DNA of 64,000 nucleotides from a virus (lineage: Duplodnaviria > Caudoviricetes). The position numbers and the translations under genes were made by a program. The notes beneath the pieces are model-generated. The model searched no databases. It was given only the letters and a program-made list of their open reading frames with translations, and had not been told where the DNA came from. Position 1 is the stretch's first letter. Each line of letters starts with the position of its first letter. Below, in pieces: positions 2,279 through 63,318 of this stretch. The DNA lies in IMG/VR virus record IMGVR_UViG_2706795703_000001, positions 1 through 64,000 of that record; one strand, written 5' to 3'.

Positions 2279-2326
2279 CGCGCTCAGCCCGGCGGGACCG
2301 ACCCGCCACCGCTGACAGGAGCACCC

Positions 2327-2515
2327 ATGGACGCCCCCGAGCGTGACCACCTGGACGACCAGGCCCGCGCCGATCTGCCCGGCCTGACCCCGCGCGAGCG
2401 GCACCTGACGCCGGTGCGCTGCACCCGTTGCGCCGCCCGGGTCTACACCTACGCCAGCAGCGCCGACGGGCTGCGCCACTACTGCCGCTGCATCGCCTGG
2501 CTGCCCGCCGCCTGA
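2327..2515 (+). CDS. Small hypothetical protein with Cys pairs (possible Zn-binding)
   Basis: AGGAG RBS upstream; CTRC and CRC motifs; phage-typical codon use. Confidence 0.65.
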   Translation: MDAPERDHLDDQARADLPGLTPRERHLTPVRCTRCAARVYTYASSADGLRHYCRCIAWLPAA

Positions 2516-2558
2516 ACACTTGCCCGACTAGGGCGGGCATCTGCGCTATCATGCGGGC

Positions 2559-3152
2559 ATGAAGCCTCGGATGATTTACCTGGTGGGCCAGCCCGGCGCG
2601 GGCAAGTCCACGCTGATGGCTGCGCTGACCAAGGGCCTGGTGCGCAGCCCCTGGCATGAGCACACCGTGCCCCACGATCAGCTGGTCGACCGCGTGACCG
2701 GCGAGACGGTGGCGGCTGAGCTGGGCGTGCAGCGCGGGGCCTTCAGCGGCACCGACGCGCTGGCCAGCAGCATCATCGACAAGGCCGTTCCGTGGATTCA
2801 GTCGCGCCCCTACGACCTGGTGCTGGCCGAGGGCGCGCGGCTGGCCAATCGGCGCTTCATCGACGCCGCCCTGGACGCGGGCTACGCCGTCACCATCGGC
2901 CTTCTCGACCATGACCAGGCCGACACCTGGCGCAAGCGCCGCAGCAAGGCGCTGGGACGCGAGCAGTCCCCGTCATGGGTCAAGGGTCGGCTGACCGCCA
3001 GCCGCAACCTGGCCGCCCACTACCCCGGCGCGCTGGTCGTCGCCGGGTCGGTCATCCCGGCTGAGCCGGGCAAGGCCATCGTGCTGGCCGGGCACCCCGA
3101 CGAACTCGAGCCGATCTTGGCGGCGGTCATGGCCCAGGACGTCGATGGCTAA
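2559..3152 (+). CDS. P-loop nucleotide/DNA kinase (adenylate-kinase-like fold)
   Basis: Walker A GQPGAGKST at the N-terminus, GTDAL and LAEGARL motifs. TATCAT 6 nt before ATG. Overlaps the terminase start. Confidence 0.8.
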   Translation: MKPRMIYLVGQPGAGKSTLMAALTKGLVRSPWHEHTVPHDQLVDRVTGETVAAELGVQRGAFSGTDALASSIIDKAVPWIQSRPYDLVLAEGARLANRRFIDAALDAGYAVTIGLLDHDQADTWRKRRSKALGREQSPSWVKGRLTASRNLAAHYPGALVVAGSVIPAEPGKAIVLAGHPDELEPILAAVMAQDVDG

Positions 3153-5796
3153 GAAGCCGGAGCTGGAGTTCCCCGACCATGGCAGCGGTGACCCCGCCGT
3201 AGCGGTCTGGCAGTCCGACGGCACGTTTGACACCCAGCGCGCCGAGCAGATATTCGAGGAGACGAAGGACTGGCCGCCGGAGCAGCGCGCGGCCATGCTG
3301 CGGTCGCTGCGCGCGGCTGAGACCCGGGCGACGGTGCGCACCAAGTACCGCCACCCCGCCGAAATGGCGGCAGCGGTGACGCCGGGCTACCGCATCACCC
3401 CCGCGCTGGCGATGATCAGCAACAGCATTGAGCGCGTGCTGAACAGCCACCGGAAAATCAACCTGTCGGTGTCCATGCCGCCGCAGGAGGGCAAGTCGTC
3501 GCTCTGCTCGGTGTGGGCCCCGCTGCGCGCGCTTCAGCTGAACCCCAACCGCCGCATCATCCTGGCCACCTACGCCCAGCCGCTGGCCGACATGCACTCC
3601 CGCAGCGCCCGCGACGTCATCAACGCCCACGGGGCGGGGCTGGTCGACCCGCTGACGGGGCTGACCGTGGAAGACAAGATCGGGCTACGCCTGGCCCAGG
3701 GCGCGAACAAGATCAGCTTCTGGGGCGTAGAGGGTGGTGCTGGGGGACTGCTGGCCGCAGGCATCGGCGCGACCATCACCGGTATGCCCGCCGACCTGCT
3801 GATCATTGATGACCCGTTCAAGAACATGATGGAGGCCGACAGCGCCACCCACCGCAACAATGTGGAGCTGTGGTTCTCGTCGGTCGCGCTGACCCGCCTG
3901 GCCCCCGATGCGTCGATAATCCTCATTCAGTGCATGACCGGCGACACCCCCGTGCTGCGACCTGACGGCACCGAGACGCCGCTTGCCGACATCCGTCCCG
4001 GTGACGAGATTGCCACCTATGAGGACGGCGCGCTCAGCACGGCCACCGTCAAGAACTGGGCCAGTCAAGGCTATGATCGTGTGAGTAAACTAGTATTTGC
4101 ATCAGGACGACAAGTGCGCGCTAACGCTCGTCACCCGTTCCTGGTGGCTCACGACGACGGGACAACCGAGTGGATCAGGCTGGCCGACCTCAAACCGGGA
4201 CATCGCGTGATTGCGACATCGACGGGTGCGAACGACCCCACCACGCCCGAGGACGGTGCAAGTCGCATTGGGCTGCATTGCGGCGCACCGAGCGAGGATT
4301 ACGGGTTCACCCCGAGGGACACTGGGGTAAATGGACCGGCGTCATCTGCTCTGCTGACGGCTGCGACCAGCCCGCCGTCATCGAGCCGGGGCTGTGCCAC
4401 AGCCACTATGACAAGCACAGATGGGCGTCTGGAATCCGGTACCCCTCGCACAGTGGGCGACCTCGCCGCAACGTGCTGCTGCGCAGGCGATACGGCATCG
4501 ACCACGACGAGTACGACCGCTTGCTCGCCGCCCAAGACGGGCGGTGCGCTATCTGCCGCCTTACGGCTGACGAGGCGCGTATGCCAGCGCATTGGAACGG
4601 CTATTTCTGCGTGGATCACGACGAGACGACCGGCGTGCGCGAACTGCTTTGCAACGACTGCAATGTCGGCCTCGGAAGGTTTCACCACGACCCCGCACGG
4701 CTCCGCGCTGCTGCCGACTATCTCGACCGACACATTGCTGCACATCGAACCTGACGGTATTGCCGAGGTGTTCGACATCGAGGTCGAGCGAACCGAGAAC
4801 TTCATCGCCAACGGGCTGGTCAGCCACAATACGAGGTGGCACCCCGAAGACTTGGCGGGCAAGGTACTGGAGGGCGAGCGGCTGCTGGACCGCGAGGAGC
4901 GCACCTGGCGGCACCTGAACATCCCCGCCATCGCGGAGGAGGGCATACCCGACGCCCTGGGCCGCCCGTACGGCGAGCCCATGGTGTCGGCACGTGACAC
5001 CCCCGAGGCCAAGCGGAACTTCGCGCAGACCCGCAAGCAGGTGGGCGAGCGCACGTGGTACGCGCTTTACCAGGGCAGCCCCCGTAACCCAGCTGGCGGC
5101 ATTTTCCAGCGCGCCTGGTTCGACCCCCGCCTACCCCAGCCGCCCAGCTACCCCGTGGCCGCCGTCGTCGGCATCGACCCGGCCGACAGCGGCGAAGGGG
5201 ATGACGCGGGCGTGGTCGGCGGCAGCCTGTACCACGACGGCAAGCAGTCCAAGGTGGCGCTGACCCATGATCGCTCCGGCAAGTTCACCAGCGACCAGTG
5301 GGCCCGCCAGGGCGTCATCCTGGCCCTGGAAATCGGGGCCCGCGTGGTCGCGGTGGAGGGCTACACCGCCGCCAAGACGTACACCCGCGTGGTGCGCCAG
5401 GCATACACCGCCATCCACAACGAGGCCATTGCGGCGCTGAACGCCGGGGCTGAGCTGACCGCCGTGCAGAAGCGCGCGCTGCCCGACATCCCGCCGTTCA
5501 TCATCAAGCCCTGGCGCGGTGCCAGCAAGGCCGACGCGGTGGCGCGGTCGGGCGGGCTGAGCCAGTCGCTGGAGACAGGGCGGTGCCGGACGGTGGAGGG
5601 CGCGCTGGCGGTGTTCGAGAACCAGGCGTGCGACTGGCAGCCCGGTCAGCACCAGCCTGACCGCGTGGCCGCGTCCATCATTGTCCACGACACCCTGATG
5701 GAAATGGCGGGCCAGCAGATGCACGTGGCCGCTCCGGTGCAGCGCAAAACTGCCCCGCCACCTGCATGGATGCGCAGAAGCATTGGGAAAGGTTGA
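3145..5796 (+). CDS. terL: Terminase large subunit, interrupted by an intein
   Basis: MPPQEGKS Walker A, LIIDDP Walker B, IQ|TRWH coupling motif split by the intein, C-terminal nuclease VGIDPA and DRVAA. Confidence 0.93.
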   Translation: MAKKPELEFPDHGSGDPAVAVWQSDGTFDTQRAEQIFEETKDWPPEQRAAMLRSLRAAETRATVRTKYRHPAEMAAAVTPGYRITPALAMISNSIERVLNSHRKINLSVSMPPQEGKSSLCSVWAPLRALQLNPNRRIILATYAQPLADMHSRSARDVINAHGAGLVDPLTGLTVEDKIGLRLAQGANKISFWGVEGGAGGLLAAGIGATITGMPADLLIIDDPFKNMMEADSATHRNNVELWFSSVALTRLAPDASIILIQCMTGDTPVLRPDGTETPLADIRPGDEIATYEDGALSTATVKNWASQGYDRVSKLVFASGRQVRANARHPFLVAHDDGTTEWIRLADLKPGHRVIATSTGANDPTTPEDGASRIGLHCGAPSEDYGFTPRDTGVNGPASSALLTAATSPPSSSRGCATATMTSTDGRLESGTPRTVGDLAATCCCAGDTASTTTSTTACSPPKTGGALSAALRLTRRVCQRIGTAISAWITTRRPACANCFATTAMSASEGFTTTPHGSALLPTISTDTLLHIEPDGIAEVFDIEVERTENFIANGLVSHNTRWHPEDLAGKVLEGERLLDREERTWRHLNIPAIAEEGIPDALGRPYGEPMVSARDTPEAKRNFAQTRKQVGERTWYALYQGSPRNPAGGIFQRAWFDPRLPQPPSYPVAAVVGIDPADSGEGDDAGVVGGSLYHDGKQSKVALTHDRSGKFTSDQWARQGVILALEIGARVVAVEGYTAAKTYTRVVRQAYTAIHNEAIAALNAGAELTAVQKRALPDIPPFIIKPWRGASKADAVARSGGLSQSLETGRCRTVEGALAVFENQACDWQPGQHQPDRVAASIIVHDTLMEMAGQQMHVAAPVQRKTAPPPAWMRRSIGKG
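3931..4830 (+). mobile_element. Intein (300 aa) in terminase
   Basis: Begins CMTGDTPV (Cys1), block B ANARHPF, ends FDIEVERTENFIANGLVSHN, followed by Thr(+1). Removal restores IILIQ-TRWHPEDL. Confidence 0.93.
4170..4754 (+). CDS. Endonuclease VII-family homing endonuclease encoded in the -1 frame inside the intein
   Basis: YGIDHDEYDRLLAAQDGRCAIC...VDHD..G.VRELLCNDCNVGLG...LRAAADYL is the EndoVII pattern. Two N-terminal Cx4C-x8/9-Cx2H motifs. GTG 4170 is the only conventional start before the first motif. Confidence 0.85.
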   Translation: MDQAGRPQTGTSRDCDIDGCERPHHARGRCKSHWAALRRTERGLRVHPEGHWGKWTGVICSADGCDQPAVIEPGLCHSHYDKHRWASGIRYPSHSGRPRRNVLLRRRYGIDHDEYDRLLAAQDGRCAICRLTADEARMPAHWNGYFCVDHDETTGVRELLCNDCNVGLGRFHHDPARLRAAADYLDRHIAAHRT

Positions 5797-5821
5797 CTTA
5801 CCCGACTTAGGCGGGTAACTT
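5793..5821 (+). promoter_or_regulatory. Near-palindromic promoter/operator, copy 1
   Basis: TTGACT-TACCCGACTTAGGCGGG-TAACTT (-35, 17 bp, -10) with TTACCCG-N7-CGGGTAA inverted repeat. Confidence 0.8.
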
Positions 5822-5887
5822 CATGGCTACCGGACAAACAGCAGCAAGGCGGGACCGTCCCGCCTGCTTTACCCGAAAGGGGCTCAC

Positions 5888-6019
5888 ATGTCCGGCTACT
5901 TTTACGAGGTCGATGGCCAGCGGTTTGACCAGCGCGTGGAGGCCATGGCCTACTGCGACATCTGGGGCTACCACTACGGGGCCATCCAGTGGGTCGACCC
6001 CGAGGCACCCTGGGCCTGA
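5888..6019 (+). CDS. 43-aa hypothetical protein not in the ORF track
   Basis: MSGYFYEVDGQRFDQRVEAMAYCDIWGYHYGAIQWVDPEAPWA; GAAAGG RBS, preceded by promoter copy 1 and the leader hairpin. Confidence 0.7.
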   Translation: MSGYFYEVDGQRFDQRVEAMAYCDIWGYHYGAIQWVDPEAPWA

Positions 6020-6036
6020 CCCAGCAGGCTGGCCCG

Positions 6037-6363
6037 CTAGTCCGGCGGGTCAGCCTCAAAGCAGACCAACACCATGCCGGGGCTGATGTAGTCGGTAAAC
6101 CACGCCTGACCGGCCGCCTGGGCGGCGTCCAGCCCGCCGACGAAGACACAGCGCATACGGTCCAGCAGATCGCTGGCGTTGCGATCTGCTACGAACCCCT
6201 CCAGGTGGTCCCAGATGGCCTGGCCCCATGCCACGGGGTCGGCCTGCAATTCGCTCAGCAGCACTGGTATCTCGACGCGGAACTTGCGGGCGCGCATGAC
6301 CTTGATGGCCACGCGGTCAGACCGACGGGCCTGCTGGTAGGCGAGCTTCGCTAGGTCGGCCAT
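6037..6363 (-). CDS. Hypothetical protein
   Basis: Start overlaps the resolvase stop (TGATG); fills the gap. Confidence 0.6.
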   Translation of the reverse strand: MADLAKLAYQQARRSDRVAIKVMRARKFRVEIPVLLSELQADPVAWGQAIWDHLEGFVADRNASDLLDRMRCVFVGGLDAAQAAGQAWFTDYISPGMVLVCFEADPPD

Positions 6364-6947
6364 CAGTCCTCCAGGGCGGCGACGACGTCATTGCGGTACT
6401 TGGTGACCGGCAGGATGGGCAGGCCCATCCGCTGGCAGACCGCTGCCCCCACGATAAGCGCGTCGGCGTCGTTGTTGTCGATGATGTCGACCACCCCGTT
6501 GAACAGGCGGCTGGTGGCCAGCAGCACTGCATCCTTGCTGGCGTTGCCGTTGCCGGTGGCGAACTTGGCGCGCTGGCTGGTGGCCACAATGGTCAGCGGC
6601 ACGTCGTACTTCTCGCATAACTCGACCACCCGGCCGAACACCCAGGGCAGCACCCAGACGCCTGACCCCTTGGCCCCGTAGGCGAGACCTTCCATGCCTA
6701 CCGCGTCGGGCTTCTCGTCGTCCCGAAAACACCCTTCTATCTGGTCGATCAGGTCGTTGACCCGCCTGGCCATGGCCCGTTTCGACTTGTCTTTCGTCGG
6801 TTTGGGCGCGCTGACGATGGCGGTGTCAGCGGTGAAGGCCACGGGCTCATCGGGCTGGCGGGGCGGGTTACTGGGCGGCCAGCTGGCCAGGTCGATACGG
6901 GCCAGGCCGGTGCCGGTCAGGCTGGTGTCGATCCCAAGTACGCGCAT
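6363..6947 (-). CDS. ruvC: RuvC-like Holliday junction resolvase
   Basis: MRVLGIDTSLTGTG, VGMEGL, KFATGNGNASKDAV, NNDADAL acidic catalytic pattern. Confidence 0.88.
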   Translation of the reverse strand: MRVLGIDTSLTGTGLARIDLASWPPSNPPRQPDEPVAFTADTAIVSAPKPTKDKSKRAMARRVNDLIDQIEGCFRDDEKPDAVGMEGLAYGAKGSGVWVLPWVFGRVVELCEKYDVPLTIVATSQRAKFATGNGNASKDAVLLATSRLFNGVVDIIDNNDADALIVGAAVCQRMGLPILPVTKYRNDVVAALED

Positions 6948-6953
6948 GGGGTC

Positions 6954-6981
6954 ACAGTACCGACATTAGCGGGTAAGTGCC
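6954..6981 (-). promoter_or_regulatory. Degenerate promoter/operator copy driving a leaderless resolvase mRNA
   Basis: GGCACT-TACCCGCTAATGTCGG-TACTGT on the - strand; the -10 ends 6 nt before ATG 6947. Confidence 0.55.
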
Positions 6982-7006
6982 ACCGCCAGCTGATACCATC
7001 GCGCGC

Positions 7007-7429: not shown

Positions 7430-7458
7430 CCGCACCACCAGGCGATAACCTGGCCCCC

Positions 7459-18038: not shown

Positions 18039-18069
18039 CAAGGCCCCCGGTCATTGACCGGGGGCCTTG
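18039..18069. terminator. Bidirectional hairpin between convergent genes
   Basis: CAAGGCCCCCGGTCA-T-TGACCGGGGGCCTTG, a perfect 15-bp inverted repeat. Confidence 0.85.
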
Positions 18070-18081
18070 CCGTTGTGTGGG

Positions 18082-18342
18082 TTAGGCGGCAGCTGCGGCC
18101 ACCGCCTCGTTGACCAGGTCGTAGGTGCCATAGCCGTTGCTGTAGAGGCGGCGCACCTGGGACGGCAGCAGGGTCAGGCGGGCGGCGGCACCGAAGGCCA
18201 CAGTGACGTCGTCGGTGGCGTGGACCTCGAGGATGGCGCGGGCCAGTCGGACCTCGTCGGTGCTGCTGCCCAGGTGGGCGGCGGCCTCGCGGATGCGACG
18301 GTCGAGGACGGCGGCGGCGAGGGTGCGGGTGGTGTGGGCCAT
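18082..18342 (-). CDS. Hypothetical protein, antisense insert in the tail region
   Basis: AAGGAG RBS, own promoter copy (18393-18422) and leader hairpin. Confidence 0.75.
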   Translation of the reverse strand: MAHTTRTLAAAVLDRRIREAAAHLGSSTDEVRLARAILEVHATDDVTVAFGAAARLTLLPSQVRRLYSNGYGTYDLVNEAVAAAAA

Positions 18343-18392
18343 GGTGACTCCTTGTGCTGGGCGGCGGGTCGGTCCCGCTTGCTTGTGTCACC

Positions 18393-18422
18393 ACACTAAC
18401 CCGCCTAAGTCGGGTAAGTCAA
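18393..18422 (-). promoter_or_regulatory. Promoter/operator copy 2
   Basis: TTGACT-TACCCGACTTAGGCGGGT-TAGTGT; first 24 nt identical to copy 1. Confidence 0.8.
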
Positions 18423-28605: not shown

Positions 28606-28606
28606 T

Positions 28607-35253: not shown

Positions 35254-35907
35254 GTGACCACGCCCAGCGTTTGCGTAGCGGAGAACCTGGTCGTCGGTGA
35301 CGACGGCAAGCTACGCCTGGCCCCGTGGTCGGTCCCGCGCAACGTCGTGGACATCCTGGCCCGCAGCGGCGCTGACACCACCAAGCTGCTGGAGACGTCG
35401 ACGCTGCCCGGCCGTCTACTCATCGACGTGCCGCCGGAGGCCGTGCTGTGGACCAACACCACCCCGGTGGACCACATGGTGCGCATCGTGGTCACCCGGC
35501 GCTGGAAGCGGTGGATCACCAGCAACCCGAACGCGGTGCAGTTCCGTGACCGCTGGTCTACCGCCGTCACCCCGGCGGGCAACGACGCGGTGATGCCTGC
35601 GGTGCCGGTGGTGTCGGGCATCTTCAACAGCCAATGCGGCAGCGCCGGTGACCTGGGCAGCAACACCGTGGCCGAGCCCGTGCCGGGCAAGTTCTGGGGC
35701 TGGTGGGGCACCAACGCCAGCGAGGAGTGGATAGAGCCGGTGGCCCCTGGTGACACCCTGCGCGTGGCCTACCGCTGCTATGTCTGGACCCCGCCACCCT
35801 TCAGCGACAACGCGAACAAGAACGCCCCCGCCCACGAGGCCGAGGCGGGCTACACCCGCATCCAGCTAACGGCCTTCCCCAAGCAGGGAAAGCTGGTGAC
35901 CGGATGA
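35254..35907 (+). CDS. Minor tail-region protein (paralog 1 of 3)
   Basis: TAAGCT 6 nt before GTG; shares motifs with the next two ORFs. Confidence 0.65.
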   Translation: MTTPSVCVAENLVVGDDGKLRLAPWSVPRNVVDILARSGADTTKLLETSTLPGRLLIDVPPEAVLWTNTTPVDHMVRIVVTRRWKRWITSNPNAVQFRDRWSTAVTPAGNDAVMPAVPVVSGIFNSQCGSAGDLGSNTVAEPVPGKFWGWWGTNASEEWIEPVAPGDTLRVAYRCYVWTPPPFSDNANKNAPAHEAEAGYTRIQLTAFPKQGKLVTG

Positions 35908-37282: not shown

Positions 37283-37645
37283 TTGCTGTACGAACCGCCC
37301 CCAGGGTTTGACGATTGCGAGGCTGACGCCGACGCAGCCCCGACGCCTGCCAGCTGGCCGTACCACGAACTGGAGGTCGAGGGGGTGGGCACGCTGCACG
37401 CCCGGCGACCACTGCCCAACGCCATCCCCAACCTAGCCGGGGCTGCGCGGGCCAAGATCAAGCCCCAGGCGCGCATCGACCACCTGGACCTGTTCGTGCA
37501 GAACCACCTGGCCGAGGGCGAGTTCGAGACGCTGCTGGCGCGCATGATGACCGAGGACGACATGCCGCCGGACGCCATGCTGCGGGTCAGCCGCGCGATT
37601 GCGACGGCGGGCACTGCCCGCCCTACACGGCGGTCATCTACCTAG
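37283..37645 (+). CDS. Tail assembly chaperone-like protein (G part), paralog of 20564..21106
   Basis: GGGAG RBS before TTG; aligns by eye to 20564 ORF (LEVEG/LEFQG, LFVQNHL/LFIARHL, RMMTEDD/RLMDPDD). Confidence 0.6.
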   Translation: MLYEPPPGFDDCEADADAAPTPASWPYHELEVEGVGTLHARRPLPNAIPNLAGAARAKIKPQARIDHLDLFVQNHLAEGEFETLLARMMTEDDMPPDAMLRVSRAIATAGTARPTRRSST

Positions 37646-39565: not shown

Positions 39566-39745
39566 CTCGCGGCTGTCGCGGTAGCGCAGCCAGGACCATA
39601 TACCGATCAATCCGGCCCCGGCGGCGGCGGTCACACCGGGGTGCGGATTGACGGTGAAAAACGACACGGCGAGCAACAGCGTTCCAGTTCCACCCATGAG
39701 GGCGACAGTAACGGGTCGGCTGTCGCGGCGCGCGTGCCTGGTCAT
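39470..39745 (-). CDS. Small membrane protein
   Basis: ATG 39745 overlaps upstream TAA; two hydrophobic segments; 3' end overlaps the convergent + strand gene by 96 nt. Confidence 0.5.
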   Translation of the reverse strand: MTRHARRDSRPVTVALMGGTGTLLLAVSFFTVNPHPGVTAAAGAGLIGIWSWLRYRDSRELASVKVIQRRAEAPGAKKFLGPLHDHAHRAV

Positions 39746-39951
39746 TACCGGCCGCCCCACCAGCCACGGCCTGGGCGCTCGGCGTGCCAAGCGTCGATGG
39801 TCTCCTCTTTCCAGCCCTTGTGGCGGCCCACCATCACATCATGCGGTGGCAGGTCGATGCCGGACAAGCTGCGCACCGACTTCATGCCCAGGCGCTTGGC
39901 CACGTCCTGGCGGGACAGGTACACCGGCACCTTGCGTTCGGTGGTGGTCAT
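39745..39951 (-). CDS. HTH DNA-binding protein (AlpA/excisionase-like)
   Basis: YLSRQDVAKRLGM...GWKEETIDAW; GAGAGGA RBS. Confidence 0.75.
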   Translation of the reverse strand: MTTTERKVPVYLSRQDVAKRLGMKSVRSLSGIDLPPHDVMVGRHKGWKEETIDAWHAERPGRGWWGGR

Positions 39952-39953: not shown

Positions 39954-40379
39954 CTACGCCGTCCTCTCCCGTGGTGTGTTCCCCGACATCGTAAGGGTTA
40001 TCACCGGCGACTCGTCGTCATCAGCAACGATCACGGCGGCGCGTCCGGCCACCAGACGGTGCCACTCCTGCCCCGGGGCATTGCTGACAGCTACCACCAG
40101 CAGGCGGTTTGCCGTCTCCTCGGCTGCGGCGATGATCTTGGCCACGTCGTCATCGAAGGCGTCGGTGACGCCTTCTACCTTGGTCAGCAGCCCCGGCGGG
40201 CAGGCGTCCTGGCCGGACTCGATGCGCTGGTAGTCGCGGCGGGACTTGCCCAGCATGACGGCCATTTCGCGCTGGTTCAGGCCCACGTACATGCGGTGGG
40301 CGCGGATGATTTCGCCGAACCCGTGCTCGTAACCCTCGGGCCTGACCTCCCGGGCGGGCTGGTCTGCGGTGATGGTCAT
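39954..40379 (-). CDS. XRE-family HTH protein
   Basis: IRAHRMYVGLNQREMAVMLGKSRRDYQRIESG; CCACCACGAAAGGA RBS before ATG 40379. Confidence 0.78.
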   Translation of the reverse strand: MTITADQPAREVRPEGYEHGFGEIIRAHRMYVGLNQREMAVMLGKSRRDYQRIESGQDACPPGLLTKVEGVTDAFDDDVAKIIAAAEETANRLLVVAVSNAPGQEWHRLVAGRAAVIVADDDESPVITLTMSGNTPRERTA

Positions 40380-40447
40380 TGTGTTCTGTCCTTTCGTGGT
40401 GGTGGCCCCGGCACCGAGGGGCGGTGCCGGGGCCATGGGCTGGCGGG

Positions 40448-41068
40448 TTACCAGCCCATCTTGTCGGCGCAGACGGGGCCGATGCCCCGGGCGCGGCTGT
40501 CGTCGTTGGTCAGCTGCCGACCGCACACCCCGCACTCGCCAATCTCGTGGCCGTAGCGGGCGCTGGCGACCTCGGCACCGGCGGCGGCGATGCGGGACAG
40601 GATGGCCCGTCCCTGCTTCATGCTCAGCTTCTGCTCGTCGCCGCCGATGACCTGCTTGACGAAGACGTACCCGGCCCAGCGGCCGGTCTCGGGGCGGTCC
40701 ACCTTGTAAAACGCGGTGCCGTTGACCGCGTGGACCTGGGTGTCGATGGCGTATCGACCGGCGGGCACGGCCACCTTGGTGTCGGCGGCAGGGGCCTTGG
40801 CGCGGCCGGTGTAGCCCTCAGCCTTCAGGCGGTCGATGTTGGCCGACACGGTGCGCTGGCTGCCGTTGTTCTCCAGGTACATGTCGATGCTGACCTGGGC
40901 GGCCAGCATGTCCGCGCCGGACGCCTGGGCCTTCTCGGTCATCAGCGCGCGCAGGTAGTCGACGCTGGCCGGGCTGGCGGGCTTGATGTAGGCGGCCGGG
41001 TCACCGGCGGTCTGGACGGCCCCGTGCGCGTCGGCCTGGGCGCTGATGGTGTCAAACGGTGTTCCCAT
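40448..41068 (-). CDS. Hypothetical protein with C-terminal Zn-finger (DUF6011-like)
   Basis: CGVCGRQLTNDDSRARGIGPVC; TAGGAG RBS; first gene after promoter copy 3. Confidence 0.72.
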   Translation of the reverse strand: MGTPFDTISAQADAHGAVQTAGDPAAYIKPASPASVDYLRALMTEKAQASGADMLAAQVSIDMYLENNGSQRTVSANIDRLKAEGYTGRAKAPAADTKVAVPAGRYAIDTQVHAVNGTAFYKVDRPETGRWAGYVFVKQVIGGDEQKLSMKQGRAILSRIAAAGAEVASARYGHEIGECGVCGRQLTNDDSRARGIGPVCADKMGW

Positions 41069-41118
41069 GGTGTGCTCCTAGTTGCGGCGGGTCAGTCCCG
41101 CGTGGCTGGTATGTGACC

Positions 41119-41148
41119 AGACTAGACCGACTTAGGCGGGTTAGTCAA
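41119..41148 (-). promoter_or_regulatory. Promoter/operator copy 3
   Basis: TTGACT-AACCCGCCTAAGTCGGTC-TAGTCT; the N7 core is inverted relative to copies 1 and 2. Confidence 0.75.
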
Positions 41149-48162: not shown

Positions 48163-48266
48163 GTGCGGGTGCTTTCGTCTATGTGGTTGTGGTGCTGGTG
48201 TTTGTGTTGTGTGGTGTGCCGGTCGGCCGGGGTGACCTGGATGCAGCCCGGCCGACCGACTCCCAC

Positions 48267-48296
48267 AAACTAACCCGACAGTGGCGGGTAAGTCAA
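48267..48296 (-). promoter_or_regulatory. Promoter/operator copy 4
   Basis: TTGACT-TACCCGCCACTGTCGGGT-TAGTTT upstream of the helicase. Confidence 0.75.
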
Positions 48297-56894: not shown

Positions 56895-57203
56895 CTACTT
56901 GTCGATGATCGGGTCGACCAGGTGGGGGTAGTCGCTGTAATCGGCGGGTGGGTTGACGCTGACGGGGTGCATGACGTCCAGCGTCACCTCCCGTTCGGCA
57001 CCGTAGCCGTAGGTCAGGAACACCTGGTCGGACTTGCTGCTGATCTGGCACAGCTCGGCGTCCACCATCGTGGTGATCTGGCGGTAATCGTCATAGGTGC
57101 TGAAGCGGATGGTCAGGCCGATATGGTCCATGGCGTTCAGCTTGCCCGCTGCCACCACCCGCCAGGTGCTGGGGACCGTTGCCGGGGCCGTTGCCTTGCT
57201 CAC
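56895..57203 (-). CDS. Hypothetical protein
   Basis: GTGA overlap with the upstream gene. Confidence 0.6.
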   Translation of the reverse strand: MSKATAPATVPSTWRVVAAGKLNAMDHIGLTIRFSTYDDYRQITTMVDAELCQISSKSDQVFLTYGYGAEREVTLDVMHPVSVNPPADYSDYPHLVDPIIDK

Positions 57204-57535
57204 CGGGCACCGCCCAGCACGAAGTCGACCAGGGTGGTGGTCGGCAAGGTCGGGCGGTACAGCCCCGGCGGTACGCCCTGGGCGTTGTCGGGGCCGCAGA
57301 TGTGGTTGCCGTGCAGGCGGCAGTCGAACGCCGGGTCATCCTCGGCGGGCTCCAGGCCGGTCACCATGAAGACGTACTCGGCATAGGTCACCGACTGGCC
57401 GGTGGCGGCGTCGTCGGGCACCGCCTTGTCGGTGTTAGGCCAGACCAGCGCGGCACCGATGGGCATACCGACGGCCAGGCCGACCAGAAGCCCGGCGGTG
57501 AATACCACCGCGCGGTCGGAATTGGTAATGGGCAC
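57200..57535 (-). CDS. Membrane-anchored protein with CxxxGNxxCG motif
   Basis: N-terminal TM; DCRLHGNHICGP; GGAAGGA RBS and leader hairpin upstream. Confidence 0.65.
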   Translation of the reverse strand: MPITNSDRAVVFTAGLLVGLAVGMPIGAALVWPNTDKAVPDDAATGQSVTYAEYVFMVTGLEPAEDDPAFDCRLHGNHICGPDNAQGVPPGLYRPTLPTTTLVDFVLGGAR

Positions 57536-57590
57536 GTGAGTGGTCCTTCCAGGTCAACCGTAGCGGGACTGTCCCGCTGGGGTGACTAAG

Positions 57591-57620
57591 GTTATAGCTT
57601 ATTGACCGTTGCCCCGTCAA
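57591..57620 (-). promoter_or_regulatory. Putative promoter TTGACG-18-TATAAC
   Basis: Seen on the - strand; followed by the leader hairpin at 57563-57577. Confidence 0.55.
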
Positions 57621-58016: not shown

Positions 58017-58022
58017 TGCCCC

Positions 58023-58052: not shown

Positions 58053-58357
58053 CGGCGTCAGCCTCAGGCGCGTGCGCGCGGGCGCGTCAGCGTACCGGAA
58101 TGACCCCCATTTTGTCAAGGGGCCTTGCATAGACCTTGACATGGACACTAGGCTGGCCCGCTAGCGCCTACCAGCCAGTGACCCCCGTCTTCGGCAAGAG
58201 AATGAGTTTTACTAAGACAAGCGGTTGACACGGGCTGGTAGAAGAACCGGGGCGACGCCCACGGGGCCCTACCCGCCCCCGGCCTCGCCGGGCGGGTATC
58301 CCCAACGGCCATGCCAGTGGTTGCCGAAGCGGTTATTAGTGGGTTAGCGTAAATGTT

Positions 58358-59101
58358 ATGACCACAACCAAGCGCACGACCACAGCACCCAAGGGTGATG
58401 TGCGGACAGAGACCCTGGACGAGTTCGATGACCTGCTGGGCGAGTACGCCAATGGCGAGACGGACTTCGCCTACCTGGTGCGGTCCCTGTGGGCCACCCG
58501 CGAAGGGATCAAGCAGCTGGACGCTGCACGCAAAGCAGTCTTCGAGCACGTCAAGGCCGCCCACACCCTGGGCCATACCACCGTGGCCGGGTACCGGCTG
58601 AAGATGACCAGCCCACCGGAGCCGACCGCCTACACCAGCGTGGCCAGTGCAGCGGTGAAGACTGCCGACGTGGCCGCGTGGCGGCGGGCGCAGGCCCTGG
58701 CACCGTTCGTGCAGGTGAAGGCACCGGCGGGGATGGCGGTGGCAGAGGAAGCGGTGCCGGAGGAGGCGGCGGTGGACTTCGTCGCACCCGAGGCGGCGGT
58801 GGTCTGCTACAAGGAACACCCCGCGTGGGCCCGGCTGCGCGAGCTGCGGGTGGTGGAACAGGAGACCCTGGGGCGGCTGGAGAAGCTGGCGGCGGATTTC
58901 GGCTGGGACGGTGACCTCAAGGTTTTCGCCGATGGCTGGTCGGTGCAGCTGCGGCGCTTGCAGTTCAGCGCGGAGAAGCTGGCAGCGACCGACCCGGCGG
59001 TGTTTGACCGGTGCGCAGTGACCAAGCTGAAGGTGGTCAACCCGCACGTCATCGTGGCCAGGGTGCGCGACGACGGCACAGAAGACGACGGCGTGGAATA
59101 G
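58358..59101 (+). CDS. Hypothetical protein
   Basis: 247 aa, helical; TAGCGT 7 nt before ATG. Confidence 0.68.
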   Translation: MTTTKRTTTAPKGDVRTETLDEFDDLLGEYANGETDFAYLVRSLWATREGIKQLDAARKAVFEHVKAAHTLGHTTVAGYRLKMTSPPEPTAYTSVASAAVKTADVAAWRRAQALAPFVQVKAPAGMAVAEEAVPEEAAVDFVAPEAAVVCYKEHPAWARLRELRVVEQETLGRLEKLAADFGWDGDLKVFADGWSVQLRRLQFSAEKLAATDPAVFDRCAVTKLKVVNPHVIVARVRDDGTEDDGVE

Positions 59102-59109
59102 CCCCGTGA

Positions 59110-59143
59110 GCTGCGGCGATGGTGTTGGTACTAGCGCCGCAGC
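59110..59143 (+). terminator. Possible hairpin after the 58358 gene
   Basis: GCTGCGGCG...CGCCGCAGC with a 16-nt loop; no U-tract. Confidence 0.35.
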
Positions 59144-59167
59144 AAAATACGGGTTATATGTATAACC

Positions 59168-59425
59168 ATGGTCCAGATAAAAGGCCCCCGCCGGGGCCGC
59201 CCACCCGGCCCAGCCAAGTTGCTGGTGCCCGTCAAAATGCTGCCTGAGCAGCGCAAACGCTTCAAGGTGATGTGTGCTGCGCAAGGCGTCAGCTACGAGG
59301 AGAAAATCGTGCAGTGGATGGACAACGAGGAGGCCAACGCGCGGCGTAAAGCTGCACGTCAGGCCCACCCCTTGCACCAGCCCAAGCCCGCCAGCTACTA
59401 CCCCGGCGGTGGTCGTAATGGCTGA
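59168..59425 (+). CDS. Ribbon-helix-helix DNA-binding protein
   Basis: KLLVPVKMLPEQRKRFKVMCAAQGVSYEEKIVQWM follows the RHH pattern. Confidence 0.7.
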   Translation: MVQIKGPRRGRPPGPAKLLVPVKMLPEQRKRFKVMCAAQGVSYEEKIVQWMDNEEANARRKAARQAHPLHQPKPASYYPGGGRNG

Positions 59426-59750
59426 GGGCGGCGCGGTGGCTGGCCCCGGCCCGGCCGACGACGACAGCGTGGCCGCCATGCTGTCGCCTGGGGCAACGGT
59501 GTGGACGGGGCTGCCCGTCACCTGCACCAGCTGTCACAACGCCGGTATGCCGGTCATGGGGCAGGACGGCTGGCAGCTGCCCGTCCACGGCCGGGTGCAG
59601 CAGGAGTTCCCCTTCGGCATCGTCACCTGCCCCGGGTCCATGACGCCGGTGACGGCCATGCAGACCCCGCAGGCCATGACCGACCGCATCGAGCAGCACG
59701 TGGTGGACGCCATGCCCCCGCGCATTAACGAGGAGTACGACACACCATGA
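59418..59750 (+). CDS. Hypothetical protein (CxxC...H...C)
   Basis: ATG 59418 overlaps the RHH 3' end. Confidence 0.6.
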   Translation: MAEGGAVAGPGPADDDSVAAMLSPGATVWTGLPVTCTSCHNAGMPVMGQDGWQLPVHGRVQQEFPFGIVTCPGSMTPVTAMQTPQAMTDRIEQHVVDAMPPRINEEYDTP

Positions 59751-59902
59751 CGCCCTGGACGCTGCCCCCGTGGCAGGTAGCCCTCATGCGCACCATCGGC
59801 GCGCTGCCGGATAAGGCCCAGCTGGTGGCGGCGATGCCACGCCAGTACGGTCACCGGCTGCGCGGTCACCGCCTGATCAGGACGGGGCAGCGCCGTGGAT
59901 GA
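59747..59902 (+). CDS. 51-aa hypothetical protein not in the ORF track
   Basis: GAGGAG RBS; ATGA overlap; MTPWTLPPWQVALMR...; fills the gap. Confidence 0.55.
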   Translation: MTPWTLPPWQVALMRTIGALPDKAQLVAAMPRQYGHRLRGHRLIRTGQRRG

Positions 59903-60416
59903 ATGGCCCGAGCTGGAGGAATTGGCCCGCGCCGTCGACGCCTGGCGCGACTGGCCCGTGGCGCTGCCCGTCGACGCCCAGCGCGTCATCGACGCGGCCG
60001 GGCCGGTGGTCGACAACTACCGCAGCCAGAAGGTGCTGATCGAGCACTACAAGAACATGCCGCCGATCAGCCTGGAGACGTTGCGCCACCAGGGTCTGGT
60101 GTCCACCGAGCAGTACGCCCGCCAGGTCGGCATCCCCTTCCACCGCACCTGCTGCACGTCGACCATCGACCAGGCCCACCTGGCCAGCTGCGCCCAGTCC
60201 GACCACGGCCAGACCCTGCCGACCGCAGCGGTAGCGGCAGCTGAGGCGGCGGCCGACGCCGCCCTGGACGGCCTGGGCCTGACCGGCTACAAGGCGGTCA
60301 TGGAGGTGGCCGGGCTGGACGACCAGGAGGTGGCCTGCCCTGGCGGGTGCGGCATGTACTACCGGCCGTTGTTTAGCTGCCACGTCTGCCCCGGGCCACC
60401 GGCGGCGACGACGTGA
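59895..60416 (+). CDS. Hypothetical protein with C-terminal Cys cluster
   Basis: CPGGCG..CHVC; operon continuity. Confidence 0.6.
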   Translation: MDEWPELEELARAVDAWRDWPVALPVDAQRVIDAAGPVVDNYRSQKVLIEHYKNMPPISLETLRHQGLVSTEQYARQVGIPFHRTCCTSTIDQAHLASCAQSDHGQTLPTAAVAAAEAAADAALDGLGLTGYKAVMEVAGLDDQEVACPGGCGMYYRPLFSCHVCPGPPAATT

Positions 60417-60643
60417 CCCACCTGACCGCGCCCGGCGGCTGGCGGCTGCCCACCGAGTACGTCTACGAGTTCACCGATGTACCCGCGCCCGTGGTGGACA
60501 TGCTGCTGCCCGGCTTCACCATCGTCAGGGGCGGCATCCGCTACCCCATCGGCCCGGTCCGGCACTACCGATGGCGTGCCCGTGCCCGCTGGGGTAGGCG
60601 CATCAAGCGCGTGCTGTTCGGTGTGCAGTGGGTCGACCGGTGA
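60413..60643 (+). CDS. Hypothetical protein
   Basis: GTGA overlaps at both ends. Confidence 0.55.
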   Translation: MTHLTAPGGWRLPTEYVYEFTDVPAPVVDMLLPGFTIVRGGIRYPIGPVRHYRWRARARWGRRIKRVLFGVQWVDR

Positions 60644-60828
60644 CCCTGGACCACACCAACCGCGACATCACCCGGTCACGGGTGGACCAGGCCACCGCCT
60701 GCTACTACGCCCGCAGCCGCCGGGTCATCGTCGTGGCCGACAAGGGCGACTTCAGCGCGGCCATGCGGGCGCTGACCGAGCTGCGCGACCACGTGGGGGC
60801 AACCCATGGGGAACAATCGGCACCATGA
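60640..60828 (+). CDS. Hypothetical protein
   Basis: GTGA overlap at 60640. Confidence 0.5.
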   Translation: MTLDHTNRDITRSRVDQATACYYARSRRVIVVADKGDFSAAMRALTELRDHVGATHGEQSAP

Positions 60829-61445
60829 GCGGCACCGATGACGACGACGGCAGCACCGTCAGTGACGCCGACCTGGGCGCGCTGCTGGACGAGGAGCTGC
60901 TGGCCCGGCGCACCAAGGTCATGTTCCTGCGCAACGCCGGGGCCACCTGGGCGGCGGTGGCCAAGGAGGTGGGGGCGGCGGTGTCCACCGTCCGCAAGGA
61001 TTACAAGATCGTCTGCCGCGACATCAACAACGAGCAGCCCGCTGACGTGGTGGCACGTCACCGCGCGGTCATCTTCGATATCCAGCGTGCCAACTACCCG
61101 GCCATGATGCGCGGGGACAAGGATGCCGCCGCCATCGTGCTGCGCGCGCTGGACCGCGAGGCCAAGCTGCTGGGCCTGGACGCCCCGACGCGGATCCTGG
61201 CCGGGGTCAGCGACGTGGAGTTCGCCAACGAGGCTGCGCGGCTAATTGACCGTATCGTCACACTGGACCCCACAACCATGAAGGAGCTAAGCCGTGCCAC
61301 CAGTTCAGGCCCCCGCATCATCGACGCCGAACCCGCTGACGTTCCCGCTGACGCGCAAGGTGCTACGCAACCTGCGCCGGTGTCTGCGGCGCAACGTGAC
61401 GCTGACCCCGGTGCCGACGATGACGACTGGAGCAACATCGCCTGA
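60825..61445 (+). CDS. HTH protein, terminase small subunit-like
   Basis: LRNAGATWAAVAKEVG..STVRKD HTH, then GDKDAAAIVLRALDREAKLLGLDAP; ATGA overlap at 60825. Confidence 0.6.
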   Translation: MSGTDDDDGSTVSDADLGALLDEELLARRTKVMFLRNAGATWAAVAKEVGAAVSTVRKDYKIVCRDINNEQPADVVARHRAVIFDIQRANYPAMMRGDKDAAAIVLRALDREAKLLGLDAPTRILAGVSDVEFANEAARLIDRIVTLDPTTMKELSRATSSGPRIIDAEPADVPADAQGATQPAPVSAAQRDADPGADDDDWSNIA

Positions 61446-61959
61446 CCCGCACCAGAGCTGGACGGTCAAACACACCGCCCAGCTGGTGGAACGCCACGAG
61501 GTCTACGCCACCACCGCCGAGGACCGCCCCGACGTGGCCAACTACGGCGACGCGGTGGCCGCCATGTTCGACCAGGCCCGCGCCTGGCACGACGCGCACA
61601 ACCTGGCCCCCATGGACCTGGCCCGCTTCGTCCGCGTCGCCGCCGACGGCAAGCCCGCCGCCGTCGGGGTCAGCTGGACGGTCACCGTCGGCCGGGGCGA
61701 CATCAGCACCGACCAGCGCCTGCCCGGTGTCATGGACGCCTGGCGGTGGTCGGCACGCTTCCACCACTGGCGTCGGGTATTCAACCGCCTAGACGGGCGT
61801 CAGGGCCGTCTGTTGGCCGCCCGCGACGACGCACGCGGGGCCACCGTGCACAAGCTCTTTCCCGAGCACGACCGCGCGGCCGACACCGTGGTGCCCTGGG
61901 CCCAGCTACCGCCGGAGCTGAACGTGACGCCGTTTGACCCGCCCCCGGCCACCCAGTAG
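61420..61959 (+). CDS. Hypothetical protein
   Basis: Start uncertain (ATG 61420 chosen to limit overlap). Confidence 0.5.
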   Translation: MTTGATSPDPHQSWTVKHTAQLVERHEVYATTAEDRPDVANYGDAVAAMFDQARAWHDAHNLAPMDLARFVRVAADGKPAAVGVSWTVTVGRGDISTDQRLPGVMDAWRWSARFHHWRRVFNRLDGRQGRLLAARDDARGATVHKLFPEHDRAADTVVPWAQLPPELNVTPFDPPPATQ

Positions 61960-61973
61960 CTATCCTGACCGCT

Positions 61974-62207
61974 ATGGGCCTCGATGACCGCAACCCCGCC
62001 ACCGTCCACCTGGCACGCCTGCTGGAGCCGAACCCGAACTTGCCGGACCGGATGCACAACGTGGCCGACGTCGCGGCCTGTCACCGCGACAAGATGCTGG
62101 AGCTGCTGGGGGACGGGCCCGAGCTGACCGCCGGGCTGCGCAAGCTGCTGGAGGCCAAAGACTGCTTCGTGCGCCAGGCGCTGCTGGACGAGGTCGATGG
62201 GCAGTGA
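61974..62207 (+). CDS. Hypothetical protein
   Basis: ELTAGLRKLLEAKDCFVR; TATCCT 7 nt before ATG. Confidence 0.7.
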   Translation: MGLDDRNPATVHLARLLEPNPNLPDRMHNVADVAACHRDKMLELLGDGPELTAGLRKLLEAKDCFVRQALLDEVDGQ

Positions 62208-62443
62208 CGGCCGACGACCAGCTGGAGCCGGTGACCATAGTCGACAAGCGCGCCCAGCGTCGTGCCGACAAGGTGCTGACCGAGCACCTACGCAACGCCC
62301 AGCGCGACCAGCTGGCCGCCAACGTGCGCCAGCTGGCGGGCACCACCTGGTGGGCCGCCCAGTCCAGCCCGACCCCCGACGAGGTGCTGGCCAGCCGTGA
62401 CGCCCTGGTCATGGAGGCCCGGATGCAAGGGCTGGACGTATGA
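62204..62443 (+). CDS. Hypothetical protein
   Basis: GTGA/ATGA overlaps. Confidence 0.6.
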   Translation: MTADDQLEPVTIVDKRAQRRADKVLTEHLRNAQRDQLAANVRQLAGTTWWAAQSSPTPDEVLASRDALVMEARMQGLDV

Positions 62444-63015
62444 CCGCTGACCCTGACACCGACGAGCCCGACTGCCGGGGCTGGGTGCCCGACTACCAGC
62501 TGGTGCCCGCGATCCTGGCGGGATCGGCCACCACCATGGCCGACCTGACCCCACCCGACCGCGCCTGGGCGGTGGCGGGGCTACTGCGCGAGGGCCACAC
62601 CGCCGAGCAGATCAAGGATCGGATGGGGTGCAGCTTGCGGCTGGTGCGCACCGTGTCAGCCTGGGCGGCCACGGCGGTGTGCCAGCTGCTGCAAGCCGAA
62701 GCCGAGCACTTCGCGGACACCTACCGGATGCAGGACGTGGAGCTACGGCGGCTGACGGCCGACCTGGTCACCGCCAACGCCACCGCCGACCGCTACCAGC
62801 GCCAGCTGGCGCGGCTGCTGGACAGCTACCTGGTGGGCGAGTCGGGCCCCAGCTTCCCCAAGTGTGGACACCCGAAGACCAGGTACAACACCTATACCGC
62901 CCCGAAGACGGGGAAGACGTCGTGCCGGATGTGCCACTGTGACGCCCAGCGGGCCTATGAACAGCGCAAGGCGGCAGCGTCAGCACTGCCGCCTTCGTCG
63001 CCGGTGGGTCAGTAG
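62440..63015 (+). CDS. HTH plus C-terminal Zn-finger-like protein
   Basis: GHTAEQIKDRMGCSLRLVR HTH; CGHP..CRMC. Confidence 0.62.
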   Translation: MTADPDTDEPDCRGWVPDYQLVPAILAGSATTMADLTPPDRAWAVAGLLREGHTAEQIKDRMGCSLRLVRTVSAWAATAVCQLLQAEAEHFADTYRMQDVELRRLTADLVTANATADRYQRQLARLLDSYLVGESGPSFPKCGHPKTRYNTYTAPKTGKTSCRMCHCDAQRAYEQRKAAASALPPSSPVGQ

Positions 63016-63266
63016 CCGTAGTCCTCGGCCGGGGCGTCGGCATCCTCGAAGAGGTCTTGGTCGTAGGCCCCGCCCAGGCGGCCGAAGTTGGCACCGTAGC
63101 GCTGGCCGCTGTCCTTCGTGACCACCTTGGCATCCTCGCCGTAGGTGTCGATGGCTTCCTGCACGGCGGCGAGCAGGTCGGCCAGGGTCATGTCGGTGCT
63201 GACCTGGTCGGCGGCGTATCCCTGGTTGTTGTCGGTGGCCATGATGACGGTGACGTTGCTGGACAT
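63009..63266 (-). CDS. Small acidic hypothetical protein
   Basis: CAGGAG RBS, leader hairpin and promoter copy 6 upstream. Confidence 0.72.
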   Translation of the reverse strand: MSSNVTVIMATDNNQGYAADQVSTDMTLADLLAAVQEAIDTYGEDAKVVTKDSGQRYGANFGRLGGAYDQDLFEDADAPAEDYGY

Positions 63267-63318
63267 GTGGGTCTCCTGACTGCTGGGGCGGGTCGGTCCC
63301 GCCGGGCTGGTGAAGACG

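Follow-up and report, generated by a model that had tools for sequence, protein, structure and literature searches.

The first 64,000 bp of the 72,139-bp phage genome IMGVR_UViG_2706795703_000001, which we refer to as the window, contain a short GC-rich hairpin that recurs with nearly the same sequence in the predicted leaders of several transcription units. Together with a SigA-type promoter upstream and a Shine-Dalgarno (SD) sequence downstream, this 5′-proximal hairpin forms a cassette, and each of the ten non-structural transcription units in the genome begins with such a cassette. Judging from the sequence comparisons described below, the most probable of the explanations that we considered, which we nonetheless rate at only about an even chance, is that the leader hairpin is read by one factor that co-regulates the stability and/or translation of the non-late mRNAs.

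The genome has a G+C content of 69%. Along most of the sequence it shares 81-83% identity with mycobacteriophages of subcluster B4 (genus Coopervirus, subfamily Bclasvirinae), among them Stinger, Cooper and Zemanar. By this similarity, the source phage is a Cluster B (Bclasvirinae) mycobacteriophage. Its gene order is also of the Cluster B type: packaging, head, tail and lysis genes run rightward in the left and central parts, replication genes run leftward at approximately 44-57 kb, and the right arm beyond the replication genes consists of small leftward genes without an assigned function. The left arm contributes two of the ten hairpin-led units, both small rightward genes, and the tail region contributes one, a gene in reverse orientation; the remainder are an operon adjacent to the lysis genes, the replication operon and five units of the right arm.

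The promoter-hairpin cassette

Matches to GCGGGACNGWCCCGC begin at six places in the window (2292, 5849, 18364, 41087, 57563 and 63288), while shuffled sequences are expected to yield 0.02. All six sites and their loops had been reported in an earlier, sequence-only reading of the window, and all are present. That reading gave the loop as ACNGW, which is correct for the six window copies. However, the remaining part of the genome adds four copies, all on the minus strand, at 66779 (loop ACCGA), 69918 (ACCGC), 71174 (ACAGC) and 72058 (ACAGA), and the consensus of all ten loops is the wider A-C-N-G-N. Similarly, its count of six units is right for the window, but the genome has ten, and the spread of the element to related phages was overlooked. 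We also carried out a check that this reading had proposed, a covariance model built across related phages. Trained on 92 copies from several phages, the model found precisely these ten sense-strand sites in the genome, with scores of 27-37 bits, and the hit ranked next (19.5 bits) comes from reading a copy with a palindromic loop in antisense. At each site the hairpin reads in the sense direction of the gene that follows it. The stem gains a sixth pair from a flanking G...C in most copies, and the predicted stabilities of the hairpins range from -8.8 to -12.2 kcal/mol. An Rfam scan of the window revealed no family reaching the gathering score of a curated model.

The only other exact occurrences of GCGGG-N5-CCCGC in the window, at 35845 and 37607, are both intragenic and have unrelated loops. 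The second of these (37607-37621, GCGGG-CACTG-CCCGC) is located directly before the sequence CCTACAC, and a hairpin is kept at the orthologous place, with varying loops, in phages PG1, Hashim76, Reprobate, BirdsNest, CRB2 and KayaCho.

The first genes of all ten units are genuine, conserved phage genes that match PHROGs (E-values 1e-18 to 1e-94) whose functions are not known, and two of these genes carry the domains DUF7185 and DUF6011. These matches agree with the previous statement that the hairpin mostly heads small genes without a known function. From the promoter type and the positions of the units, we infer that they are expressed early. Eight of the ten copies share one promoter type, which has the hexamer TTGACT, a 17-18-nt spacer containing an imperfect palindrome, and the hexamer TAACTT or TAGTNT. 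The copies at 2292 and 57563 use other sigma-70-like promoters (Table 1).

The position of the hairpin relative to the promoter is informative. In this phage, the five-pair stem starts 13-27 nt past the -10 hexamer, which, assuming the usual 6-nt gap between the -10 hexamer and the transcription start, places it at approximately +7 to +21 of the predicted mRNA. The sequence-only reading had given the same range of 7-21 nt, which we recover from the -10 hexamers, although the start sites themselves are predictions. Its placement of the hairpin in a leader ahead of the ribosome-binding site also stands: at every site there is a promoter upstream and an SD-preceded ATG or GTG start codon downstream, 18-27 nt from the end of the hairpin. 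Measured to the six-pair stem, the distance from the -10 hexamer is 10-11 nt in subclusters B1, B2 and B3 and in BirdsNest, 13-14 nt in B4 and 12-16 nt in our phage, with two outliers of 26 and 35 nt. Distances of 10-16 nt correspond to approximately +5 to +10 of the predicted mRNA. On the other hand, in the multi-phage census the hairpin is separated from the SD by 1-26 nt and from the start codon by 13-36 nt. Because the first distance is tight and the distance to the SD is variable, the hairpin appears to be positioned relative to the transcription start. The predicted 5′ overhang ahead of the stem is approximately 4-10 nt.

A SigA-like promoter precedes 83 of the 92 copies and the replication-operon promoter precedes seven more; two intercistronic copies (Nigel 45519 and BirdsNest 69187) have no promoter. 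Many leaders in B1, B3, BirdsNest, TPA2 and the Gordonia phages are hardly more than the hairpin and the SD, as in CCCGCcGAGGAAGGA, with a gap of 1-3 nt between the two. With the hairpin nearly touching the SD, a factor bound there would occupy the edge of the ribosome landing site.

The palindrome in the promoter spacer, TTACCCG-N7-CGGGTAA, is imperfect and occurs in both orientations. In the window it is found at 5799-5815, 18399-18415, 41126-41142, 63325-63341 and 48273-48289 (minus strand), and outside the window at genome positions 66816-66832, 69955-69971, 71211-71227 and 72092-72108. A scan for terminator patterns marks three of these palindromes as terminator-like, with a 7-bp stem followed by the T-rich CTTCGTCTTC. 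By analogy with the promoter-early stem-loop (PeSL) cassettes discussed below, the palindrome could serve as an operator and/or as the terminator of the unit upstream. The same promoter type is also present at 48200-48296 (minus strand), upstream of a DNA helicase gene, but there it is followed by a hairpin of approximately 14 bp (GTCGGTCGGCCGGG...CCCGGCCGACCGGC) and a long CA-rich leader; this arrangement is kept in Stinger, Cooper, Nigel and Adawi.

In the long leader of hairpin 2 (5828-5900), the 5′ sequence CCGGACA is complementary to UGUCCGG, a stretch that includes the start codon, and the modelled pairing of the two (fold z-score -5.1) is a possible gene-specific translational trap on top of the common hairpin. 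The stretch between genes 1 and 2 of a right-arm unit contains, just ahead of the next SD, a hairpin whose 11-bp stem is closed by the loop GUGA (GGCGGGGUCGG-GUGA-CCGGCCCCGCC; genome positions 66445-66470, minus strand). Some leader folds pair the extreme 5′ bases with the SD; we set these aside, since those bases are probably upstream of the transcription start.

Distribution and conservation of the hairpin

The element, in the form (G)GCGGG-A-Y-N-G-N-CCCGC(C), is present in 120 leader copies in 15 genomes, with 5-11 copies in each. This set represents subclusters B1-B6 and B9, the further Bclasvirinae phages BirdsNest and Hashim76, the Tsukamurella phage TPA2 and a Gordonia phage. The hairpin was found in every relative examined, namely PG1 (B1), Rosebush (B2), Phaedrus (B3), Cooper, Stinger, Nigel and Adawi (B4), Reprobate (B5), KayaCho (B6), CRB2 (B9), Hashim76 and BirdsNest. 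Outside the Bclasvirinae, TPA2 has seven leader copies, and the Gordonia phages CloverMinnie and MakoManhole have six each; TPA2 and the Gordonia phages share with the window only patches of approximately 73% identity. While the hairpin is constant, the promoter is not. The -35 hexamer is mostly TTGACA/T, but is TAGACT in B5 (Reprobate), GAGACA in B2 (Rosebush), GTGTGT-like (GTGTGT/C) in B9 (CRB2) and TTGCGC in Gordonia phages (CloverMinnie), and the spacers likewise depend on the lineage. These lineage-specific -35 sequences hint that an activator or a modified sigma factor might be needed in some lineages.

Among the matches listed in a scan of viral contigs, the motif occurs in multiple sense-strand copies only on contigs of approximately 70 kb, which is the typical size of Cluster B genomes; those listed in a pattern scan of bacterial genomes are scattered single matches in many high-GC taxa. 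The 38 actinobacterial metagenome-assembled genomes (approximately 125 Mb) have 13 matches, which gives a background rate and not a figure for the host. A search with LysA for bacterial loci, as a host census, found none. Four unrelated uncultured viral contigs (L050, L076, L094 and L123; 47-64% G+C) each have two or three copies of an analogous cassette, in which a TTGACC-type promoter is followed by a hairpin (GGGGCGGG-GCAAT-CCCGCCCC), a U-rich stretch, an SD and an ATG. A design combining a promoter with an invariant leader hairpin thus recurs beyond actinophages.

The sequence-only reading had taken the conservation of both stem and loop as a sign of recognition, and several results confirm that the letters are fixed beyond what folding needs. 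In the loop, G4 is present in 117 of the 120 copies and a pyrimidine at position 2 in 114, and a census in which A1 was not required found it in 93 of 94 copies. Approximately 96% of copies keep the canonical stem, with other stems in approximately 4%. The contrast with surrounding sequence is clearest in the leader of the DUF6011 gene, which is orthologous in all 15 phages: the ten stem bases, A1 and G4 are all 100% conserved, whereas in the flanks, taken as 45 nt on the upstream and 30 nt on the downstream side, only about 50% of the phages have the majority base.

Pairing is maintained as well. Across 92 distinct copies, 99.3% of cells pair, three of the six pairs have double changes, and none of 500 shuffles reached any of the five measures. 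When leaders were scanned from promoter to SD without a pairing requirement, there were no stems with a single mismatch and four stems with two changes. The changes in all four are compensatory; Hashim76 and BirdsNest have GCCGG/CCGGC, and Phaedrus has both CCGGG/CCCGG and UCGGG/CCCGA. In Reprobate, a single deletion variant still folds in a shifted register, and PG1 has two copies with a 3-nt loop. At orthologous sites the sixth pair varies among G-C, A.C, A-U and G.U. The asymmetric loop is always oriented with the downstream gene, and covariance scores are 15-25 bits higher in the sense than in the antisense direction. Overall, these patterns favour a transcribed RNA stem-loop under sequence-specific selection over a DNA element.

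Cassettes also coincide with changes in gene content. In blastn comparisons with B4, B6 and B9 phages, synteny blocks of the right arm are bounded by cassettes, the cassettes match one another paralogously, and the genes after the hairpins at 63288, 69918 and 71174 are replaced by others in relatives. On this sequence evidence, the promoter-hairpin cassettes mark mosaic junctions, as do the PeSL cassettes of T4-type phages.

The coordinates of the six units in the window are given in Table 1. Unit 3 ends at a GC-rich bidirectional terminator hairpin (AAGGCCCCCGGTCATTGACCGGGGGCCTT), with the major tail protein gene on one side and the convergently oriented DUF7185 gene on the other.

Table 1. 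Hairpins, promoters and genes of the six hairpin-led units in the window. Distances are from the -10 hexamer to the hairpin.
Feature	Position (strand)	Sequence or product	Score (bits)	Stability (kcal/mol)	Remarks
Hairpin 1	2291..2307 (+)	GGCGGG-ACCGA-CCCGCC	36.9	-11.1	6-bp stem
Unit 1 promoter	2250..2278 (+)	SigA-like, TTGTCG-17-TAGCTT			No spacer palindrome; distance 13 nt; assigned by consensus
Unit 1 first gene	2327..2515 (+)	62-aa Cys4 protein			PHROG 29466, function not known
Hairpin 2	5848..5864 (+)	GGCGGG-ACCGT-CCCGCC	28.4	-12.2	7-bp stem with triloop possible
Unit 2 promoter	5793..5821 (+)	Cassette type, TTGACT-TACCCGACTTAGGCGGG-TAACTT			Distance 27 nt
Unit 2 first gene	5888..6019 (+)	43 aa			PHROG 1575, function not known
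Hairpin 3	18364..18378 (-)	GCGGG-ACCGA-CCCGC	30.3	-8.8	Sixth pair A.C
Unit 3 promoter	18393..18422 (-)	Cassette type, TTGACT-...-TAGTGT			Distance 14 nt
Unit 3 sole gene	18082..18342 (-)	86 aa, DUF7185			
Unit 3 terminator hairpin	18040-18070				Bidirectional; closes the unit
Hairpin 4	41087..41101 (-)	GCGGG-ACTGA-CCCGC	30.1	-8.9	Sixth pair C.C
Unit 4 promoter	41119..41148 (-)	Cassette type, TTGACT-AACCCGCCTAAGTCGGT-CTAGTCT			Palindrome flipped; distance 17 nt
Unit 4 first gene	40448..41068 (-)	206 aa, C-terminal DUF6011			Heads lineage-wide operon
Unit 4 next gene	39954-40535	XRE-type helix-turn-helix (HTH)			
Unit 4 next gene	39745-39951	Xis-type HTH			
Hairpin 5	57562..57578 (-)	AGCGGG-ACAGT-CCCGCT	27.3	-10.5	Sixth pair A-U; heads replication operon
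Unit 5 promoter	57591..57620 (-)	Distinct type, TTGACG-18-TATAAC			Distance 13 nt
Unit 5 first gene	57200..57535 (-)	111 aa			GTG start; PHROG 1148
Hairpin 6	63287..63303 (-)	GGCGGG-ACCGA-CCCGCC	36.1	-11.1	
Unit 6 promoter	63319..63347 (-)	Cassette type, TTGACT-TACCCGACATAGGCGGG-TAACTT			Distance 16 nt
Unit 6 first gene	63009..63266 (-)	85 aa			PHROG 3939; other genes take the locus in B4 relatives

Possible functions of the hairpin

The proposal that the hairpin has a dedicated reader would work as follows. The cassette would be portable, and the element would act as RNA, with the hairpin as the docking site for a single conserved reader that confers a shared post-transcriptional fate on all hairpin-led mRNAs. 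We propose a docking site for one reader because it is the letters (the identity of the stem, A1 and G4), beyond the fold, that are fixed. Our best guess is that the hairpin provides 5′-end protection and coordinated control of translation, and so would mark an early or middle regulon; the translational part is suggested because the hairpin abuts the SD or lies within 1-14 nt of it. The reader might be a lineage-conserved phage protein or a host machine (RNA polymerase, the ribosome, RNase E, RNase J or RppH), and a host machine is equally possible since the hosts span three genera of one order. More specifically, and with a lower probability, the hairpin may be an RNA operator of a novel regulator that tags early mRNAs as a class, either a small phage protein conserved from Cluster B to the Gordonia and Tsukamurella phages or a conserved host machine that the phages exploit. 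If it were true, the tagged mRNAs could escape infection-induced RNA decay or translational shut-off, or could be switched off jointly at the early-to-late transition, and the hairpin would constitute a phage ‘self-mRNA’ mark of a kind that is not documented in actinophages.

Several observations call this proposal into question. The searchable literature gives no transcription-start, RNA or binding data for any Cluster B phage, and we found no RNA-binding protein in tblastn searches of all open reading frames (ORFs) against 14 relatives or in Pfam, PHROGs and PDB sequence searches. The survey behind the proposal covers phage genomes. The small non-structural proteins that are present lineage-wide are the Xis-type HTH protein (39745-39951), the XRE-type HTH protein (39954-40535), the DUF6011 protein, proteins of 191 and 205 aa and an HNH-like protein; by sequence, these look like DNA binders (the Xis- and XRE-type HTH proteins) or an HNH-like protein. 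The predicted overhang is long for a purely 5′-terminal protector. Furthermore, the substitutions at the sixth pair, eight G.U and five A.C, do not discriminate between strands, and templated mutation at quasi-palindromes could yield symmetric double changes, so that covariation is not proof of action as RNA.

We looked at two proteins of this phage individually. A 76-aa Arg-rich ORF (60413-60643) was rejected as the reader, since of the relatives only two B4 phages out of four, Adawi and Cooper, conserve it in synteny. The Cys4 protein of unit 1 contains CxxC-N17-CxC, and its size and cysteine spacing are reminiscent of the phage Mu Com translational activator; despite its PHROG match, it has no homologue in the 14 relatives.

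An explanation without any reader, which we regard as unlikely but which fares best among the alternatives, is that the hairpin is a purely structural 5′ stabiliser or insulator. In that case, a stable hairpin of any sequence near the 5′ end would protect the mRNA against RppH, RNase E and RNase J while leaving the SD accessible, and the uniform sequence would reflect one cassette spreading by duplication and recombination instead of recognition. The dependence of the hairpin’s position on the promoter rather than the SD, the all-G-C stem, and the mosaic junctions with their paralogously matching cassettes all fit this explanation, and 5′ stem-loops are established stabilisers of mRNA (PMC3997798). 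However, it does not readily account for stem letters, A1 and G4 that stay fixed at orthologous sites where the leader flanks, -35 and spacer have diverged. A passive hairpin could drift among equally stable stems, yet alternatives occur in just the few percent of copies noted above, and the retention of one stem and two loop bases by nearly all copies, in phages whose leaders are in other respects close to random, is the signature of a sequence-specific reader. In addition, RppH requires 2-3 unpaired nucleotides (PMC3997798), and the predicted overhang would still let it in.

The inverted repeat could alternatively be a DNA operator of 15-17 bp, located at approximately +5 to +21 and bound in double-stranded form by a phage regulator that acts as a dimer to block or tune the adjacent promoter. 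The conserved inverted repeats of phiC31 and the stoperators of Cluster A phages are parallels. The repeat is perfect, lies at a set distance from the -10 hexamer, and lineage-wide HTH proteins are encoded in a hairpin-led operon. On the other hand, the 5 bp at the centre lack symmetry and point in the direction of transcription at every site, and some variants alter both half-sites symmetrically while the other sites of the same genome stay canonical. The PG1 triloop copies, whose arms are 2 bp closer, and the shifted Reprobate copy still fold, but would misalign half-sites; the triloops and the two copies without a promoter are both awkward for a dimer that binds two DNA half-sites beside a promoter. 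In view of the caveats about templated mutation and the G.U and A.C pairs, we retain this explanation, though we think it improbable.

The sequence-only reading had suggested a boxB- or nut-like antitermination signal, in which the nascent hairpin, with or without an N-like protein, would modify RNA polymerase so that it passes terminators, as in nut or put systems. The boxB elements of lambda and P22 are 15-nt RNA hairpins with a 5-bp G/C-rich stem and a promoter-proximal pentaloop that is read by a protein, and this pentaloop is G-A-rich (GAAAA, GAAGA or GACAA) and adopts a GNRA-like fold. The length, the 5-bp G/C-rich stem and the pentaloop near the promoter are shared by our element, but the loop A-Y-N-G-N does not have the GNRA-like form, and no boxA-like block, which in nut sites lies a few nucleotides upstream of boxB, is conserved: the alignment of 92 sites has no conserved block outside columns 10-26. 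There are also ten copies per genome, all near an SD, where nut systems have one to three sites at the head of long, terminator-containing operons. The unit at 18364 is monocistronic and has its own bidirectional terminator; the sequence past this terminator is antisense to late genes (the major tail gene). Moreover, U-tract terminators in the operons are no commoner than in shuffles (5 against 3.5 expected; 7 against 8.0 expected), although terminator types without a U-tract could not be scored. We found no lineage-wide candidate for an N-like arginine-rich protein among the ORFs compared with relatives. We therefore reject membership in the nut/boxB family on the grounds of loop, boxA, copy number and the self-terminated single-gene unit, and consider antitermination in general to be very unlikely. 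The two other functions put forward in that reading, a translational operator and 5′ protection, are both still candidates on sequence grounds.

Most unlikely of all is that the cassette is kept solely as a recombination linker for modular gene shuffling, with no role for the hairpin in expression: the synteny boundaries, the swapped genes and the PeSL precedent (PMC2839356) speak for it, but the element is also found at stable orthologous positions before conserved genes in all 15 phages (the replication operon and the DUF6011 operon), 15-17 bp are short for homologous exchange, and the strand-specific conservation of the loop would be left unexplained.

Cluster B is among the largest groups of sequenced mycobacteriophages, and we did not find a published account of its gene-expression programme in the searchable literature. 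Nor did we find a description of the hairpin there, including in a B1 preprint, the CRB2 paper and PMC3029335; the TPA2 genome paper (PMC3067230), which might mention the repeat, lies outside that coverage. The B1 preprint notes that the right arm has at least ten strong promoters of the SigA-like type. A single invariant RNA element of 15-17 nt, found also in Gordonia and Tsukamurella phages, defines a regulon of approximately ten units per genome. A specific reader, if there is one, would provide a new RNA-protein pair for actinobacterial genetics, offering orthogonal control of translation or stability, as well as a clue to the timing of early genes in lytic actinophages. The compact arrangement of promoter, hairpin and SD is a ready-made module for strong expression.

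Comparison with known systems

The nearest precedent in mycobacteriophages is the SAS/ESAS system of Cluster K, but its sequence, structure and position differ. The SAS sequence, GGGATAGGAGCCC, is 13 nt long, lacks structure and contains the SD, and ESAS consists of 17-bp imperfect repeats that are specific to a subcluster (PMC3203893). Like our hairpin, SAS is a short, asymmetric, transcription-oriented element a little upstream of the starts of non-structural genes, preceding unrelated genes across subclusters, with 11-19 copies per genome (PMC3203893). Unlike SAS and ESAS, the element described here does not include the SD but precedes it as an invariant hairpin of its own, coupled to a promoter. 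In the window, GGGATAGGAGCCC has one match with at most two mismatches, compared to 1.9 expected, and this match is intragenic.

Among RNA elements, the hairpin resembles the 5′-terminal stem-loops in the ompA, papA and aprE leaders, which stabilise bacterial mRNAs (PMC3997798), in that a stable hairpin near the 5′ end of the mRNA, here a predicted one, is followed by a good ribosome-binding site. Those stabilisers, however, work by structure alone and vary from gene to gene, whereas one sequence is used here in approximately 120 copies in phages of three host genera. In protein-bound translational operators, such as those of the MS2 and PP7 coat proteins and T4 RegA, a hairpin is located at or next to the SD or AUG, and its loop bases are read by the cognate protein; our hairpin ends 1-26 nt before the SD.

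The cassette as a whole is comparable to the PeSL cassettes of T4-type phages, in which an early promoter, a stem-loop and an SD precede ORFans and mediate modular shuffling (Arbiol et al. 2010, PMC2839356). In both cases, a strong host-sigma promoter, a GC stem-loop and an SD are repeated ahead of small early genes with no known function and a few replication genes, and the cassettes are located at the borders of swapped gene modules. PeSL stem-loops are variable in sequence and position, are mostly inside or overlapping the promoter, and terminate upstream transcription (PMC2839356). By contrast, the leader hairpin here is invariant with a conserved loop, is transcribed, lies at a set distance after the -10 hexamer and has no U-tract. 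The place of the PeSL stem-loop is instead taken by the palindrome in the promoter spacer, and the leader hairpin is a second element. The role of the cassette at mosaic junctions thus carries the PeSL idea from T4-type phages to actinophages.

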